A DNA stretch of 64,000 nt from Candidatus Micrarchaeota archaeon (GTDB lineage Archaea; B1Sed10-29; JAJRYS01): positions 118,737 through 182,736 of the forward strand of contig CAZXTN010000001.1 in the NCBI GenBank assembly GCA_964643685.1, read 5' to 3'. The notes under the pieces were generated by a model, which was given only the letters and a program-made list of their open reading frames with translations, searched no databases and had not been told where the DNA came from. Shown here piece by piece: positions 3,563 to 52,329 of this stretch. The position numbers were made by a program, and so were the translations under genes. Position 1 is the first letter of the stretch, and the number at the start of each line of letters is the position of its first letter.

Positions 3563-3991
3563 ATGCCAGGAGAATTCGCAGCAAAAAAACTAGCAGATGA
3601 CAGGCAACACTTCAGATGGAAAGATGTAAGATACCAGAAAAGAAAAAGAAGAGAAAGACACAAGGATACAGACCCATTAGAAGGAGCGCCACAAGCAAAA
3701 GGAATAGTAGTAGAAAAAAAAGGAGTAGAACAAAAACAGCCACACTCAGGAATAATAAAAGCAGTAAGAGTACAACTACTAAAAAACGGTAAGACAGTAA
3801 CAGCACACGTACCAAGAGACGGAGCAATTAAATTCATAGACGAACACGACGAAGTACTAATAGAAGGACTAGGAGGCTCACAAGGAGGAGCAATAGGTTC
3901 AATGTGGGGAATCAAATACAAAGTAGTCAAAGTAAACGGAGTATCACTAGAAGAACTGAGAAAAGGAAAGAAAGAAAAAGCAAAAAGGTAA
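3563..3991 (+). CDS. rps12: ribosomal protein S12
   Basis: Sequence similarity to S12/S23e (PKKPNSA-like core); synteny. Confidence 0.9.
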
Positions 3992-8278: not shown

Positions 8279-8593
8279 ATGAGCCAAATAGCAAGCATAA
8301 AACTAGTAAGCCCAGAATACACAAAACTACAGAAAGTAAGCGAAGAAATAAAAGACATAGCTAAAAGAACAGGCGCAAAAGTAAAAGGGCCAATACCACT
8401 GCCAACAAAAAAACTAGTCATACCAACAATGAAATCACCATGCGGAGACGGCTCAAAAACATGGGAAAAATGGCAAATGAGAGTACACAAAAGACTCATC
8501 AACATCGTAGCAGACGAAAGAACACTAAGACAAATAATGAGAATACAAGTCCCAGACCAAGTGCACATCGAAATTGAACTAAAATCAGAATAA
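8279..8593 (+). CDS. rps10: ribosomal protein S10
   Basis: S10/S20e family; follows tuf as in archaea. Confidence 0.9.
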   Translation: MSQIASIKLVSPEYTKLQKVSEEIKDIAKRTGAKVKGPIPLPTKKLVIPTMKSPCGDGSKTWEKWQMRVHKRLINIVADERTLRQIMRIQVPDQVHIEIELKSE

Positions 8594-8642
8594 AAAAAAA
8601 CACAAACTAATTCTTTAAAAAAACAGAAAAGAACAAGCTAAT

Positions 8643-8654
8643 TCTTTATAAACT
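8643..8654 (+). promoter_or_regulatory. archaeal BRE/TATA-like box (TCTTTATAAAC) ~28 nt upstream of tRNA-Ser
   Basis: Matches recurring motif (C/G)TTTATAAA also seen at 11365, 27913, 35014, 45537. Confidence 0.5.
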
Positions 8655-8682: not shown

Positions 8683-8810
8683 GCAGAGGTGGCAGAGTGG
8701 TAATGCGCTGGTTCACTTTCGCTCGGCGAAATGAACGACTGAACGGAGTGAGGCGAGTCTTGAAAACCAGTGTCCTCCGGGGCGCTAGGGTTCAAATCCC
8801 TACCTCTGCG
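8683..8810 (+). tRNA. tRNA-Ser (anticodon TGA) with a 46-nt intron (8713-8758) at a non-canonical position (31/32 or 32/33); class II long variable arm; T-loop TTCAAAT; CCA not encoded
   Basis: Acceptor GCAGAGG/CCTCTGC+G, anticodon stem CTGGT/ACCAG, spliced loop CTTGAAA, T-stem TAGGG/CCCTA parsed by hand. Confidence 0.7.
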
Positions 8811-8849
8811 CTTTACTTTTATAATTTTACAGATTAAGTTGGTTACAAA

Positions 8850-9415: not shown

Positions 9416-9437
9416 GCAAACAAACTTGTTTGTTTGC
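9416..9437. other. perfect palindrome GCAAACAAAC-TT-GTTTGTTTGC (10-bp stem) in the Nudix-archease spacer
   Basis: Read directly; flanked by imperfect 22-nt direct repeat of the archease start. Confidence 0.6.
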
Positions 9438-9463
9438 GGTGTCGAATAATGAGGGATAAGGTT

Positions 9464-9877
9464 ATGTACGAATTATTCGAACACACGGCTGACATAGGCG
9501 TGCGCGGATATGGAAAAACAATTGAAGAAGCATTTGAAGAAACAGCAAAAGCAATGACATCAATACTAGTAGACCTGGACACAATCGAAGAAAAAAAGAC
9601 AATTAAAATAGAAGCAGAAGCAGACACCCCTGAAGAACTTCTATTCGAATGGCTGAATGAAATACTAGCACAAATAGACATTGAAGGGATGATATTTAAA
9701 AAATTCAAAATAACAAAACTAAAAAACAACAAGCTGGAAGCAGAGTTGACAGGCGAACAACTTTCACCTGAAAAACACCACACTAAAACGCAAGTAAAAG
9801 CAGCTACTTATTCACAGCTAAAAGTATACAAAGATGAAAACGGGCGCTGGATAAGCCAATGCATCGTAGACGTCTAA
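9464..9877 (+). CDS. archease (RtcB activator)
   Basis: N-terminus MYELFEHTADIGVRGYG typical of archease; ORF track starts at TTG 9434 but conserved start is ATG 9464. Confidence 0.85.
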   Translation: MYELFEHTADIGVRGYGKTIEEAFEETAKAMTSILVDLDTIEEKKTIKIEAEADTPEELLFEWLNEILAQIDIEGMIFKKFKITKLKNNKLEAELTGEQLSPEKHHTKTQVKAATYSQLKVYKDENGRWISQCIVDV

Positions 9878-9910
9878 AAAAAATCAAAAAAATTGGAGGT
9901 GTGCGGAAGT

Positions 9911-11344
9911 ATGGACTTAGCACAATTAAACAAAATATCAGAATACGAATGGGAAATAGAGCAAACAGGAAACATGAACGTACCTGGAAAAATATTCGCT
10001 TCACAGTCACTAGTTGAAGCAATGGGAGACAAGGTAAAAGAACAGATTCAAAACGTGGCCCAATTGCCAGGAATACAAAAAGCAGCAATGGCAATGCCAG
10101 ACGCCCACTGGGGCTACGGGTTCCCAATAGGAGGAGTAGCAGCATTTGACCCTGAAGAAGGAGGAGTCATCTGCATGGGAGGAGTTGGCTACGACATCTC
10201 ATGCGGAGTAAGGACACTTAAAACAAACATGACACTGGAGGAAATACAGCCTTACTTAGAGCCGCTAGCAGATGAATTATTTAAAACAGTACCAGCAGGG
10301 CTCGGAGTGCATGGAAAAATAAAATTAAACGTCGAGCAATTAGATGAAGTTTTAGTAAACGGAGCAGAATGGGTTATTGAAAAAGGATATGGCTTAGAAG
10401 AAGACTTGGAATACACTGAAGAAAGGGGAAAAATGGGAGGAGCAGACCCAACAAAAGTTTCATACAAAGCAAAAAAAAGACAATTTAAAGAGATAGGAAC
10501 ACTCGGCTCAGGAAACCATTACCTAGAAATACAATACGTTGATGAAATCTATGATGAAAAAATAGCAAAAATGTATGGATTGGAAAAAAACCAAATAGTA
10601 ATTTCACTGCATTGCGGTTCAAGAGCACTCGGACACCAAATAGGAGTTGATTACACAAAAACGCTGACAGAAGCAGCTGAAAAATACAAGCTAAATCTAC
10701 CAGACAAAGAATTGGCAGCAGCTCCAATCAACTCGCCAGAAGGACAAGATTACTACGCTGCAATGAAAGCAGGAGTAAACACAGCACTTGCAAACAGGCA
10801 AGTGATAGGTCACTTGGCAAGAACAGCATTTGAAAAAATAGTTCCAAACAGCGAAGTAAAAATGTTCTATGACATTTCACACAACACATGCAAAGAAGAA
10901 GAACATGTGATCGGCAACAAGAAAAAGAAATTATTCGTGCACAGGAAAGGGGCGACAAGAGCATTCGGCCCAGGCAGAAAAGAACTGCCAAAAAAATACA
11001 TGCAAGCAGGACAGCCAGTATTAATAGGCGGAACAATGGGAACATCTTCTTTCATTTTAGCTGGAACAGAAGAAGGAACTGAAAAAACATTCGGAAGCGC
11101 CTGCCACGGAGCAGGGAGAGGAATGAGCAGGAAACAAGCTAAAAAACAATTCCACGGAGAAAGCATAGTAAGCCAGTTGAAACAGCAGCAGAAGATAATA
11201 GTAAAAGCCCATTCAGCAGCAGGAGTAGCTGAAGAAGCGCCAGGAGCTTATAAGAATGTAGAGGAAGTGGTAAATTCCGTGCATTACACTGGCTTAGCTA
11301 AAAAAATAATCCGCTTAAAGCCACTAATAAACATTAAAGGATGA
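9911..11344 (+). CDS. rtcB: RNA-splicing (tRNA) ligase RtcB
   Basis: RtcB motifs (PDAHWGYG, GSGNHY, CHGAGR); GGAGGTG SD 9 nt upstream of ATG 9911; no intein. Confidence 0.9.
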   Translation: MDLAQLNKISEYEWEIEQTGNMNVPGKIFASQSLVEAMGDKVKEQIQNVAQLPGIQKAAMAMPDAHWGYGFPIGGVAAFDPEEGGVICMGGVGYDISCGVRTLKTNMTLEEIQPYLEPLADELFKTVPAGLGVHGKIKLNVEQLDEVLVNGAEWVIEKGYGLEEDLEYTEERGKMGGADPTKVSYKAKKRQFKEIGTLGSGNHYLEIQYVDEIYDEKIAKMYGLEKNQIVISLHCGSRALGHQIGVDYTKTLTEAAEKYKLNLPDKELAAAPINSPEGQDYYAAMKAGVNTALANRQVIGHLARTAFEKIVPNSEVKMFYDISHNTCKEEEHVIGNKKKKLFVHRKGATRAFGPGRKELPKKYMQAGQPVLIGGTMGTSSFILAGTEEGTEKTFGSACHGAGRGMSRKQAKKQFHGESIVSQLKQQQKIIVKAHSAAGVAEEAPGAYKNVEEVVNSVHYTGLAKKIIRLKPLINIKG

Positions 11345-46791: not shown

Positions 46792-47465
46792 TTGACATAC
46801 AATACGCCCTTCCATTGTTCATAGTGCTCATAAGCCTTGAAAGCAGCTCCTTGAACATGGAAGGAGCAGTGTCAGCCCTCTTAATGGCTTACTTAATCCT
46901 GCTAACCCAAAACGTCTGGTGGTTCTTTTACTTACTAGCATTTTTCATAATAGCCATGCTTGGAACAAAATATGGAGAGAAAAAAAAAGAAAAAAAGAAA
47001 CTAATACAACAAACAAGAGGATCAAAAAACGTAATGGCAAACGGAGGAATAGCTCTTCTCATGGCTTTGCTTGGAGGCCCTTATGCAGTATACGGTTTCG
47101 TCGGCGCACTTGCAGCAGCAACAGCAGACACAACAGGTTCTGAAATAGGAGTGCTTTCAAAAACAAAACCAATAATGATAACAACACTCAAACCAGCAAA
47201 ACCAGGAATAAACGGAGCAATTTCACTAAAAGGAACAATAGCAGCTGCAATTGCTTCCTTTTTAATGGGTTTAATTGCATTGACTCTTACAAGAGACTTT
47301 AACATTATATGGATAACAACAATAGCAGGCATGGCAGGAATGCTTGCAGACTCACTAATAGGAGCAGTGTTTGAAAACAAAGGATATTGGGGCAACTCAA
47401 TCACAAACATGTTCGCTACAACAACAGGAGCAACAGTAGCACTTTTATTAACAACATTAATATAA
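46788..47465 (+). CDS. DUF92/TMEM19-family integral membrane protein
   Basis: ATADTTGSEIG motif; multiple TM segments. Confidence 0.6.
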   Translation: MIDIQYALPLFIVLISLESSSLNMEGAVSALLMAYLILLTQNVWWFFYLLAFFIIAMLGTKYGEKKKEKKKLIQQTRGSKNVMANGGIALLMALLGGPYAVYGFVGALAAATADTTGSEIGVLSKTKPIMITTLKPAKPGINGAISLKGTIAAAIASFLMGLIALTLTRDFNIIWITTIAGMAGMLADSLIGAVFENKGYWGNSITNMFATTTGATVALLLTTLI

Positions 47466-47511
47466 AAAAATATAAATAAAAAACAAAACAATAAAACAAA
47501 AAATAAAAAAA

Positions 47512-47530
47512 AGTCCCGTAGTCTAGTGGC
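47512..47530 (+). repeat. upstream exact copy of tRNA-Gln 5' module (AGTCCCGTAGTCTAGTGGC)
   Basis: 19/19 identity to 47667-47685; followed by three perfect hairpins. Confidence 0.8.
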
Positions 47531-47666
47531 TGCCCCTTTCTTTTTTCGAAAAAAGAAAGTGGTAAGTGTTGCAATTAACGAAGTTAATTGAACCATCAAA
47601 CAATCTTCGATTGTTTGCATGTAGCCCAAAGAAAAAACAGGACTGAGAGAAGTATAAACCAAAAAT

Positions 47667-47920
47667 AGTCCCGTAGTCTAGTGGCCAAGGATTCTGGCCT
47701 TTGGAACGTTTCAACGCCTTCAAAAAAAGGAGTTAAGCGTGGAAACAGCCAGAGACGGCGGTTCGAAACAAAGGGTTACACCCTCTTGACACCTGTCATT
47801 GGGATGCGCTTGCGCTTACCCAATTGTCAATGATAAGGGAAGGGGGGTCAGGAGGACCCTGAAACTGGGGGGGAAACCGCAGGTGTCCCCCGCGGTTCGG
47901 CGAAACTCCGCCCGGGACTA
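47667..47920 (+). tRNA. tRNA-Gln (anticodon TTG) with two introns: canonical 37/38 (47705-47746, 42 nt) and T-loop 59/60 (47768-47906, 139 nt, GC-rich)
   Basis: Acceptor AGTCCCG/CGGGACT+A, D-stem GTCT/GGAT, anticodon stem CTGGC/GCCAG loop CTTTGGA, T-stem GGCGG/CCGCC with spliced T-loop TTCGAAT. Confidence 0.65.
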
Positions 47921-48038
47921 TAACCCATCACTTATTATAAAATCACTAACAGATTTACAAAAAGACCACTAAGCGAAGCGCATGTGGTCTGCGGGGAGAT
48001 CAGAAACTCCCTAGAAATGAGAGGGGCAGCAAGCCCCT

Positions 48039-48068
48039 CGCGTTTCGGAGAAACTCCGCCCGGGACTA
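48039..48068 (+). repeat. downstream near-exact copy of tRNA-Gln 3' module (CGCGTTTCGGAGAAACTCCGCCCGGGACTA)
   Basis: Last 20 nt identical to 47901-47920; 28/30 identical overall with 47891-47920. Confidence 0.8.
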
Positions 48069-48096
48069 CTTAAAAATTCTTTTTTTTGCAAGAAGG

Positions 48097-48837
48097 TTAG
48101 AAGCTAGCTGTTGCTAGTCTCATTCCATTTTCATTAATGTCAATCAAATACTTGGACATTGGAAATCTTGTTGCTATCATTTTTCTAATCATGAGAGTTT
48201 GGTTTAAAGAATCTTGCCCAGGGTTGAAAAACAAGTCAATCACTCCATCAAGTACAAAAGGCTCAACTCCATACTCAGTTAAACCACCTGAAATGCTAGA
48301 AGAACCAGCTGTAGAAGTTTGCCTCTCAGCAACAAACAAAGTAGTACATCCTTTTTCTTTCAAAGAACGTGAAAGGTAATAAAGAAGAGTTCTGAATTTT
48401 GACTTGTTATTAATAGCCTGTGCAAGAGGAGAAAGAGAATCAAAAACAATTCTCTTAGCGCCTATTTCATTAATAACTTTGTTAAGCTGAAGGATAATTT
48501 CAGAATGAAGAGAACGTAATTCAAACTTGTCAAACTCCACAGGGTCATAAGAAGAAAAAATTAACTTGTTCTGCTTCTGTAAACTAACAATATCCCAATT
48601 AAACCTTTCAGCATACCATTGAAAATCTTTTTCATAAGCTTCTACGCTAATCATAAACCCAGGTTCATCGTATAATTTAACGCCGTTGTACAAGTACTGT
48701 AAACTAAAAATAGACTTGCCTACACCAGGAGGACCTGTTAACAAAATAGAAGAAGGACGTGGAAAACCTCCTTCAATCAAGCTATCTAAACCAGGAATGC
48801 CTGTTTTAACCCTATCCATAGCACACTCACAACCCAA
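48097..48837 (-). CDS. RecA-superfamily ATPase, KaiC-like single-domain
   Basis: Walker A TGPPGVGKS, GIPGLDSLIEGGFP N-terminus. Confidence 0.75.
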   Translation of the reverse strand: MGCECAMDRVKTGIPGLDSLIEGGFPRPSSILLTGPPGVGKSIFSLQYLYNGVKLYDEPGFMISVEAYEKDFQWYAERFNWDIVSLQKQNKLIFSSYDPVEFDKFELRSLHSEIILQLNKVINEIGAKRIVFDSLSPLAQAINNKSKFRTLLYYLSRSLKEKGCTTLFVAERQTSTAGSSSISGGLTEYGVEPFVLDGVIDLFFNPGQDSLNQTLMIRKMIATRFPMSKYLIDINENGMRLATASF

Positions 48838-50576: not shown

Positions 50577-51577
50577 TTTTTACCCCTCGCTTCTTTTTTT
50601 TCCATAAGCCACAGCACAAGAACAGCGTTAGTGAACCAAGTTGCTATGATGTCAGCAAGCAAGCCAATAACCATCATAAGAGAGATGTCAAAAAGAACTG
50701 AAATGCTTGCATAGTAAGAGACAATAAGCAAGCTAAGCATTGTGAAAAAAGCAGTTAAAGTCATTGTAAGCCCTGTTTTCAAAGCACCGTTAAGACGCTC
50801 GTATTTTGTGCCTGATTTTCTTTTAATCATTCTGTCATTAAGCATGATGTCCGTGTCAATTGAATAACCAATGAGCATAAGTAAAGGGGCAAAAGTTGCA
50901 AGAGTTAATGGAATGTGAAAAGCCCCTAGAACTGCATAGCCAACTAAAACGTCAAAAAAAGCAGACTGCACAGCTGCAAAAGACAAGACAAAAGTCCTGA
51001 AGTAATAGAAAATTAAAATTGTTATGAAAACAAAAGCTAGGATGATTGCTGTTGTCGCTTGCTTTAAGAAGAAGTCACCAAGAGAAGGGCCGATATCTTG
51101 TATGGAAAGCTGTGAAGATTCAACTTGAAGTTCTGAAGAAAGGAAGGAAATCAGTTTGTCTTTGAATTCTTGTCTTGCTTTTGAAAAGTAAGCATCAGCT
51201 TGATCTTTCAATGGAAGGTTAGACACTCCAAGATCACCTACAGTTGGCTTAAGAAGGGAAATAACTTGCTCATATTTCTGGTTCTTAAAGTAATTCTGAG
51301 CTTTTAAAAGAGTTTTTTCACCTAAAAATTCAATGTAAACACTTTTAGTAGCGCCAGTAACCTGCCTAACTGACAAGTCCTCTAAATCAAAATTTGATTC
51401 AAGTTTGCTTTGAAATTCCTGGACATTTATATCCTTGTTAACAGGAGATACTATTGAAGTCCCTCCTTTCAAATCAATTCCATACTCAACTTGCGTTGAA
51501 AAATAAAGAGACAAGATAAGAATTAAAATTGGGACTATTAGCAATAATTTATAATGCTTAGATGAGTAAATCTTCAT
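50573..51577 (-). CDS. secF: protein-export membrane protein SecF
   Basis: SecF family, GIDLKGGT motif. Confidence 0.8.
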   Translation of the reverse strand: MKIYSSKHYKLLLIVPILILILSLYFSTQVEYGIDLKGGTSIVSPVNKDINVQEFQSKLESNFDLEDLSVRQVTGATKSVYIEFLGEKTLLKAQNYFKNQKYEQVISLLKPTVGDLGVSNLPLKDQADAYFSKARQEFKDKLISFLSSELQVESSQLSIQDIGPSLGDFFLKQATTAIILAFVFITILIFYYFRTFVLSFAAVQSAFFDVLVGYAVLGAFHIPLTLATFAPLLMLIGYSIDTDIMLNDRMIKRKSGTKYERLNGALKTGLTMTLTAFFTMLSLLIVSYYASISVLFDISLMMVIGLLADIIATWFTNAVLVLWLMEKKEARGKK

Positions 51578-51579
51578 TG

Positions 51580-52329
51580 ATGAACACCTTGTTAATTGAT
51601 AGAAAAGGCAAAAAAACCTTAATAAGCACTGAGGAAAGAAAAGCCAACACTCAGTATGGAATAATTAGTGAAACAGACCTTAATAAACTTAATGGTGGGC
51701 TTGTGAAAACGCATACAGGCAAGCAACTGCTTGCAGTGAAACCAAGCTTTCAGGACATGGTTGAAAGCATGAAAATGGGCTCGCGTCCAATATACCCTTA
51801 TGACTCGGGAATAATGTCAGCAATGCTTTCAATTAAAAAAGGAACAAAGGTTCTTGAATCAGGCACAGGAAGCGGAGGAAATACAATTTACTTAGCTGAA
51901 CTTGGAGCAGAGATAGACACGTGGGAAAAAGAAAAAAGGTTCTATGACATAGCTGAAAAAAACCTGGCAAAGTACAAGAATGTGAAAACACATTACGGAA
52001 ACGTGTTGGAACAGAAATTAAAGAGAGAATTTTACGACGTGATTTTTCTGGACTTGCAGAATCCTTCTCAGGCAATTGAGCAAATTGATTACTCTTTAAG
52101 GATAGGTGGTTTTGTGGGTGTTTATTCTCCTATCATGGATGACATCAAGCCGGTTTGGAGGAAACTAGAGGAAAGAGGTTACTTTGACATCAGGGCAATT
52201 CAGTTGGATTTGAAGGAAGTAATTGTTAAAAAGTATGCTCGTGTAAAAGGATTACTAGGATACCCTGGCTGGTTTATCTGGGGTAGGAAAGGAAGTGAGT
52301 TAAAAAATGATGAGTTTGGAAGAAATTGA
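51580..52329 (+). CDS. trmI: SAM-dependent tRNA (adenine-N1) methyltransferase, TrmI/Gcd14-like
   Basis: SAM motif VLESGTGSGGNT; ORF track start 51562 would overlap secF start codon on opposite strand. Confidence 0.55.
   Translation: MNTLLIDRKGKKTLISTEERKANTQYGIISETDLNKLNGGLVKTHTGKQLLAVKPSFQDMVESMKMGSRPIYPYDSGIMSAMLSIKKGTKVLESGTGSGGNTIYLAELGAEIDTWEKEKRFYDIAEKNLAKYKNVKTHYGNVLEQKLKREFYDVIFLDLQNPSQAIEQIDYSLRIGGFVGVYSPIMDDIKPVWRKLEERGYFDIRAIQLDLKEVIVKKYARVKGLLGYPGWFIWGRKGSELKNDEFGRN

Follow-up and report, generated by a model that had tools for sequence, protein, structure and literature searches.

A two-intron tRNA-Gln(UUG) gene accompanied by partial copies of both of its ends in a Micrarchaeota-like archaeon

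The routes by which archaeal tRNA genes acquire introns and come to be split or permuted are still unsettled (PMC4090602, PMC3978253). In ARMAN-2 (Micrarchaeum), the pre-tRNA-Cys carries an hBH intron at position 59/60, and the epsilon2 endonuclease cuts relaxed motifs of this kind (PMC3239211). Additionally, integrative elements leave partial tRNA fragments in archaeal genomes, six of which, for example, are found in A. pernix (PMC3218864).

This work concerns a tRNA-Gln locus in a 64-kb stretch of DNA (hereafter the window) from a Micrarchaeota-like DPANN archaeon. The window consists of archaeal housekeeping DNA of 36% GC and also encodes Kae1, Bud32, the ribosomal proteins S15 and S3Ae, SecD/F, RtcB, archease and many further ribosomal proteins. 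The locus is the spacer 47466-48096, which extends from a DUF92 gene (plus strand, ending at 47465) to a KaiC/RadA-like ATPase gene (minus strand, with its stop at 48097), and contains, in this order, a 5′ fragment, a complete gene and a 3′ fragment of tRNA-Gln. What a sequence-only reading had said of the duplicated 5′ and 3′ modules holds throughout, apart from small corrections, and the tRNA-Gln block is indeed GC-rich against AT-rich surroundings (47-49% versus 36% GC).

With the ARMAN-2 tRNA-Cys gene, the locus shares the phylum-level lineage, the 59/60 intron site and the relaxed hBH geometry, but its intron is long (139 nt), the 3′ end of this intron is doubled together with the following exon, and a fragment of the 5′ exon lies upstream. 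It resembles the multi-intron archaeal tRNA genes in being missed by standard tRNA finders, and here the 59/60 intron is joined by a canonical one at 37/38. Separate 5′ and 3′ pieces with an adjoining GC-rich 12-bp complementarity recall the split and tri-split tRNAs of Nanoarchaeum and Caldivirga (reviewed in PMC4090602 and PMC4033280); however, the pieces at this locus do not sum to a tRNA, and no bulge-helix-bulge (BHB) motif is found at their junction. Unlike the permuted tRNA genes, it has no 3′ part upstream of a 5′ part and keeps a complete collinear gene. Direct repeats of tRNA-gene ends beside an intact gene are also what integration fragments look like, but here element genes are missing, very little DNA lies in between, the two ends have been altered symmetrically, and intron sequence forms part of the 3′ repeat. 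In its redundancy, the locus is reminiscent of the kind of intermediate that is required by the duplication-based model of tRNA gene rearrangement. The two-intron gene in itself is of a known kind, and it is the redundant 3′ intron-exon module and the orphan 5′ fragment that are unusual.

The inner two-intron gene and its syntenic relatives

The inner copy, on the plus strand, is a real two-intron tRNA-Gln gene, the introns of which show BHB geometry at 37/38 and 59/60. Exon 1 (47667-47704, positions 1-37 of tRNA-Gln(UUG)) is orthologous to its counterparts in the relatives L003, L004, L006 and L030, and is followed by intron 1 (47705-47746, 42 nt) at the canonical 37/38 site, with a BHB of h 7 bp, H 3/4 and h′ 6 bp. 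Exon 2 (47747-47767, positions 38-59) and the inner copy of exon 3 (47907-47920, positions 60-73) are the remaining exons. Between them, intron 2 (47768-47906, 139 nt, with GC-rich hairpins) interrupts the T-loop at 59/60 and has a relaxed hBH motif, in which h is the 5-bp T-stem GGCGG/CCGCC, H is TTCG/CGAA (4/4), the bulges are AA|A and AC|T, and h′ is 1 bp. As the sequence-only reading had worked out by hand, the inner copy is a tRNA-Gln(TTG) gene with two introns, whose spliced 73-nt product is accepted by ARAGORN as tRNA-Gln(ttg) and has a normal cloverleaf and a proper anticodon loop.

We infer the transcript limits, the acting enzymes and the choice of the 3′ copy, and maturation is modelled on the standard archaeal pathways. 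The 5′ end at 47667 would be made by RNase P, the splicing endonuclease would cut at 47704|47705, 47746|47747, 47767|47768 and 47906|47907, and the exons would be ligated by the window-encoded RtcB, with trimming of the 3′ trailer and CCA addition thereafter. The genes for archease and the tRNA-splicing ligase RtcB are adjacent at 9434-11344 (plus strand), 37 kb upstream of the tRNA-Gln locus, and the same pair adjoins the tRNA-Gln/KaiC region in another contig (L007); a scan of 30 ORFs of the window revealed no gene for the splicing endonuclease (EndA). At 51562-52329 (plus strand), 3.5 kb from the tRNA-Gln gene, a GCD14/TrmI-like tRNA methyltransferase of the m1A58 family is encoded. The T-loop of the tRNA-Gln gene is interrupted directly after position 59, and the order of methylation and splicing is of interest.

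Default ARAGORN and Rfam called no tRNA anywhere in the window. The tRNA-Gln locus is absent from the Rfam results in both gathering and E-value modes, and the ARAGORN check that the sequence-only reading had proposed did not recover the intact gene, which was missed by the default and -i modes alike, only the spliced product being accepted. A tRNA-Ser(UGA) gene, interrupted after nt 31, a non-canonical site, by a 46-nt intron, is hidden at 8683-8811 (plus strand) and was found by ARAGORN -i only, while default ARAGORN and the Rfam gathering mode overlook it. It is closely preceded by a 31-nt tandem repeat at 8589-8650, and no exon duplication was found around this second tRNA gene of the window. 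Both tRNA genes of the 64-kb window are thus invisible to default ARAGORN and Rfam, and the tRNA sets of such genomes will therefore be under-called.

Relatives of the locus were found by protein searches with both flanking genes, and the contigs are labelled Micrarchaeota where they are labelled. Four of them (L003, L004/L005, L006 and L030) share the order DUF92, tRNA and KaiC-like gene, with one tRNA-Gln(UUG) each; L009, L016 and L018 were set aside since synteny is missing, and the contig of L017 is cut inside the tRNA. The gene of L003, whose KaiC protein is 86% identical to that of the window, has the 37/38 intron only, which is homologous to intron 1 of the window (88% identity over 107 nt including exons). 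No intron is present in L004/L005 (KaiC 81% identity), a D-loop intron is present in L006 (KaiC 62% identity), and L030 (DUF92 87% identity) carries a 45-nt intron at 59/60 with the same TTCG/CGAA helix. Intron sites at the syntenic locus are 37/38, the D-loop, 59/60 or none, and the window alone has 37/38 together with 59/60, so that the intron content at one orthologous tRNA-Gln locus turns over fast within the clade. The spliced window tRNA is identical to that of L003 at 73/73, L004 at 72/73 and L006 at 71/73 positions; because it matches the tRNA-Gln of the syntenic relatives, the inner gene is the vertically inherited copy.

Duplicated modules were found in none of the four syntenic relatives, nor were duplicated ends found in tRNA-Gln genes from more distant DPANN archaea that share the 5′ module. 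The search among related genomes that the sequence-only reading had called for thus returned the arrangement in 0/4 cases, and the duplicated ends are, by this comparison, specific to the lineage of the window.

Several further features were observed in the fetched tRNA-Gln genes. In almost all tRNAs, position 33 is U; the intronless tRNA-Gln(UUG) of L004 (4768-4840) and L005 (minus strand), with the anticodon loop CCTTGGA, has C at this position. In L012, at about 2340-2480, direct repeats of ~45 nt (GTCCGTTGCGCCGGACCAACG.ATGGGAT...) follow right behind an intronless tRNA-Gln(CUG). The tRNA-Gln(UUG) gene of Micrarchaeota S014_66 (L014, 6739-7130) has a canonical intron of ~320 nt, which consists of polypyrimidine/polypurine palindromes and internal repeats (64 nt at 97% and 24 nt exact), and it shows tRNA-Gln intron growth driven by duplication in a related lineage. 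This gene is like that of the window in being the same tRNA in a related lineage, with an intron grown by local duplication and with palindromes resembling the first hairpin of the 5′ spacer, but its duplications are confined to the 37/38 intron and the exon ends are not copied.

The outer copies, their spacers and the long-range pairing

The outer, orphan 5′ copy at 47512-47530 (plus strand) covers tRNA-Gln positions 1-19 and is identical at 19/19 nucleotides to 47667-47685. This 5′ module (AGTCCCGTAGTCTAGTGGC) has a sharp 3′ boundary, and the repeat extends to 30 nt at 90% when the A-rich upstream part is included. Behind it, the hairpin-rich part of the 5′ spacer (47531-47620, plus strand) contains perfect palindromes at 47536-47559, 47572-47590 and 47597-47617, and the 5′ spacer folds more stably than its shuffles (z = -4.4). 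All three hairpins that had been read from the letters are present, but the loop of the second is GAA and not GAAG. A T6 run at 47541-47546 within this spacer could stop transcription.

Upstream of the inner gene by 29 nt, the motif TAGCCCAAAGAAAAAAC (47622-47638) matches at 16/17 positions its L030 counterpart TAACCCAAAGAAAAAAC (3761-3777), which lies 50 nt upstream of the L030 tRNA-Gln. The form TA(A/G)CCCAAAGAAAAAAC is thus conserved upstream of tRNA-Gln in the window and L030 amid otherwise unalignable A-rich spacers, and it is a candidate BRE/TATA-type promoter element; TATA-like strings occur everywhere in the 36% GC DNA of the window. Because the motif is shared with L030, the last 46 nt of the 5′ spacer (47621-47666, plus strand) look like the original upstream region of the inner gene. 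In the comparison with L030, the segment from 47512 to about 47620 (~109 nt, comprising 19 nt of exon and three palindromes) lies between the A-rich spacer and the conserved motif, and looks like an insertion into the upstream spacer. Comparison of this insert with the gene body, the sequence upstream and the rest of the window revealed no source, its detectable matches being the 19-nt exon and a 16-nt inverted match to 48015-48030. A decayed tandem copy was considered as the origin of the 5′ spacer and rejected, as this spacer resembles neither the gene body at offsets 140-170 nor the sequence upstream. From the short direct copy, the short inverted copy and the perfect palindromes, we infer a pattern of the kind left by template-switching repair.

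Joining of the outer 5′ copy to the tRNA body was considered at 15 in-register joins (k = 6-20), at none of which a BHB is present; a bare CTAG palindrome is all that could form the central 4 bp, and there are no flanking helices. The outer 5′ copy cannot be spliced to the tRNA body; it is most likely inert, and at most it would pair with the spare 3′ copy.

The situation is different on the 3′ side, where the outer copy of exon 3 (48055-48068, plus strand; 14/14 identical to the inner copy) is preceded by a 3′ spacer (47921-48054, plus strand) that aligns collinearly, with a period of 148, as a diverged tandem copy of intron 2, the last ~65 nt being clearly homologous. The 3′ modules, ending at 47920 and 48068, form a 34-nt repeat at 91%, of which the last 19 nt (GAAACTCCGCCCGGGACTA) are exact. 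Homology extends over ~80 nt, since 47838-47920 and 47990-48068 are collinear with 60/84 alignment columns identical, and the part of the repeat upstream of the 34-nt core was matched by 16/5000 shuffles; when the whole units are aligned, intron 2 resembles the 3′ spacer no more than marginally (35/1000 and 79/1000 shuffles). The similarity is graded, and because 148 is the length of the intron plus exon unit, the spacing fits a tandem duplication. Hence, collinear units spaced by the unit length are found on the 3′ side and not on the 5′ side.

Common to both 3′ copies is a two-tier hairpin just before the splice site, with 3 double changes and 0 broken pairs between them; this covariation comes from two sequences, with a shuffle control floor of about 1 in 8, and slid controls show no such changes. 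In the outer copy, each of the three substitutions inside the 34-nt core results in a Watson-Crick pair. Relative to shuffles, the 3′ spacer is even more strongly folded (z = -6.0) than the 5′ one. With exon 2, the outer exon 3 forms a BHB of h 5 bp, H 3/4 and h′ 1 bp, the central helix having one mismatch, AGAA instead of CGAA. The downstream flank of the outer 3′ copy resembles the flanks in L004, L017 and L030. A T8 run at 48080-48087 (plus strand), read from the sequence and matched by a T-run in the same position in relatives, is a candidate terminator; no other oligo-T occurs from the inner gene to its downstream neighbour, and none separates the outer 3′ copy from the inner gene. Owing to the near-intact BHB, the ancestral flank and the sole downstream T-run, the outer 3′ exon is probably co-transcribed and a credible alternative acceptor, and it could serve as an alternative 3′ exon, with either choice yielding the same tRNA.

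Other repeats and RNA genes were sought around these copies. TRF found no tandem repeats, neither of the two spacers nor intron 2 has a further copy in the window or the fetched loci, and a search of the introns and spacers for C/D-box sRNAs gave a weak C-like/D-like pair by eye and no match in Rfam.

The outer ends are mutually complementary, as had been noted from the letters, and the second long-range helix described inside them also exists, but with 12 bp and not 8 bp, between GCTGCCCCTTTC (47529-47540) and GAGAGGGGCAGC (48019-48030) with one G-U. Dinucleotide shuffles of both spacers give this 12-bp complementarity a chance P~0.005, and it is non-random. In the fold of 47512-48068, by which the sequence-only reading had proposed to check its nested structure, the 12-bp helix is not predicted, having a probability of ~0 and a cost of +9.1 kcal/mol, and it is disfavoured because each strand sits in a better local hairpin. 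In the same fold, the outer 7-bp acceptor-like helix reaches P~0.99 and the inner acceptor helix ~0.49. When the outer 5′ copy is left out and the transcript starts at the inner gene, the prediction is that the inner 5′ acceptor strand takes the outer 3′ copy as its partner rather than the inner one (P 0.99).

The sequence-only reading had taken the inner gene as a possible ~485-nt intron of an outer tRNA-like shell, which we find unsupported. The outer pieces cover tRNA positions 1-19 and 60-73 only, and since they lack 20-59, the shell has no D-stem 3′ strand, no anticodon arm and no T-stem 5′ strand. The BHB expected at the outer junctions is absent from the 15 in-register joins and, by hand inspection of the sequence, from both registers beside the 12-bp helix (TCTA versus AAGC unpaired, or the bulge missing); a general BHB scan is too noisy in A/T-rich sequence and was used only for the two real introns. 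With positions 20-59 missing, no BHB and a helix that is thermodynamically outcompeted, the shell was rejected as a tRNA, and no outer tRNA is present. No 3′ part of a D-arm and no second anticodon arm, such as a tRNA-Gln(CUG) sharing the outer pieces would need, was found in the window.

Assembly support was examined with Logan contigs that derive from two sequencing runs of the same strain and that end at 47566 or 47577 and restart at 48019. Two of them (L001 and L002) confirm the outer 5′ copy and its unique continuation up to 47577, and a third (L008) confirms the outer 3′ copy from 48019 onward, while the stretch 47578-48018 comes from one assembly. The breaks lie inside both spacers, and hairpin-related coverage loss or strain variation could be their cause. 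That the arrangement is an assembly artefact or a strain chimera, with the nesting produced by joined variant alleles, would accord with these breaks and with a middle part known from one assembly, but we regard it as very unlikely, as the 19-nt exact repeats are shorter than any assembler k-mer, so that reads must span each junction, both outer copies and their unique continuations are independently confirmed, and the breaks coincide with very strong hairpins, which are common sites of coverage loss.

Origin and possible roles of the outer copies

Based on these findings, we propose that the locus is probably one functional two-intron tRNA-Gln(UUG) gene to which local rearrangements added partial copies of both ends. 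On the 3′ side, a tandem duplication with a period of 148 would have copied the T-loop intron together with the 3′ exon, and the distal copy would have retained the terminal hairpin of the intron, a slightly weakened BHB, the ancestral downstream flank and the only T-run. On the 5′ side, the copy would have arrived as part of the ~109-nt insertion into the upstream spacer. Some observations sit uneasily with this account. Exact exon copies amid neighbours that are 60-85% identical (3′) or unrelated (5′) are not predicted by a simple old tandem duplication followed by neutral decay, and local rearrangement does not explain why the outer 5′ copy is bordered by a 12-bp complementarity. The sourceless 5′ spacer, the marginal homology over the whole 3′ units, the single assembly behind the middle part and the lack of an EndA gene among the 30 ORFs also weigh against it. 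Exact exons with diverged surroundings would fit selection on both copies, the import of a diverged allele or a very recent templated insertion.

Recombination offers another source for the outer copies, which could be the footprints of since-deleted integrative elements at tRNA-Gln or inserted pieces of the allele of a diverged relative. Partial tRNA-gene repeats beside tRNA genes are a classic footprint of archaeal integration (PMC3218864, PMC3239211), and direct repeats of parts of the gene do flank the inserted DNA here, the 5′ one exact over 19 nt with a sharp 3′ boundary and the 3′ one at 91% over 34 nt. Moreover, the mature tRNA-Gln is identical across the clade, so that a copy of a diverged allele would give exact exons, a compensated hairpin and unrelated flanks, as is seen. 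However, only 114-136 nt lie between the repeats, with no ORFs and neither an integrase nor any other gene of an element, the gene order to the left and right is undisturbed, nothing similar occurs in phage, plasmid or IMG/VR collections, and the graded 3′ similarity with a spacing of one unit length is what tandem duplication leads one to expect. A mobile-element origin was also considered from 15-nt matches in IMG/VR, which were judged to be due to chance, and a scan of metagenomes for the intron-exon junction gave two chance matches only. We therefore consider an origin by recombination unlikely; the relic of integration at the tRNA that the sequence-only reading had entertained is possible in itself, but found no positive support.

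The outer pair might instead act as a functional RNA, in which leader and trailer pair via the 7-bp helix, with or without the 12-bp one, and clamp or guide pre-tRNA processing or make up a tRNA-like RNA of two pieces. In the full-length transcript, the outer acceptor-like helix is predicted at P~0.99 and both nested helices then form, the 12-bp helix is improbable by chance, the spacers are strongly structured and the exon copies are exact. Set against this, folding does not predict the 12-bp helix (ddG +9.1, P~0), hand inspection found no flanking BHB and hence no known processing route, tRNA positions 20-59 are missing from the outer pieces, the T6 run and the conserved promoter-like motif stand between the inner gene and the outer 5′ copy, and all four syntenic relatives lack the arrangement, all of which makes such a function very unlikely. 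For the related suggestion of a novel tRNA-derived structured RNA, we found no support beyond the hairpin content.

A last reading holds that both 3′ modules are selected as alternative BHB acceptors and that the orphan 5′ fragment engages the spare 3′ module by means of its acceptor strand and the 12-bp helix, thereby deciding which acceptor is used. Folding is compatible with such an acceptor choice, because both nested helices form when the 5′ fragment is present, and the 5′ strand of the tRNA switches to the outer 3′ copy when it is absent; nevertheless, we give this reading only a slight probability. To our knowledge, a built-in arrangement of alternative splicing and decoy has not been described for archaeal tRNAs. 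Alternative processing to the same tRNA, which the sequence-only reading had listed for the outer modules in general, is plausible for the 3′ copy with its near-intact BHB, but not for the 5′ copy, which has none.

Redundant exon ends and the rearrangement of archaeal tRNA genes

Duplication-based models for the rearrangement of archaeal tRNA genes need intermediates with redundant exon ends, few of which have been seen so far. The locus described here is such a redundant-end state, in a setting where the same syntenic gene has 0, 1 or 2 introns at three sites. The junction 59/60 is the one used by known permuted tRNAs, and the duplicated unit of the tRNA-Gln locus sits at this same junction. 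In addition, the locus offers a test of whether the archaeal splicing endonuclease chooses between two acceptors that yield the same tRNA.
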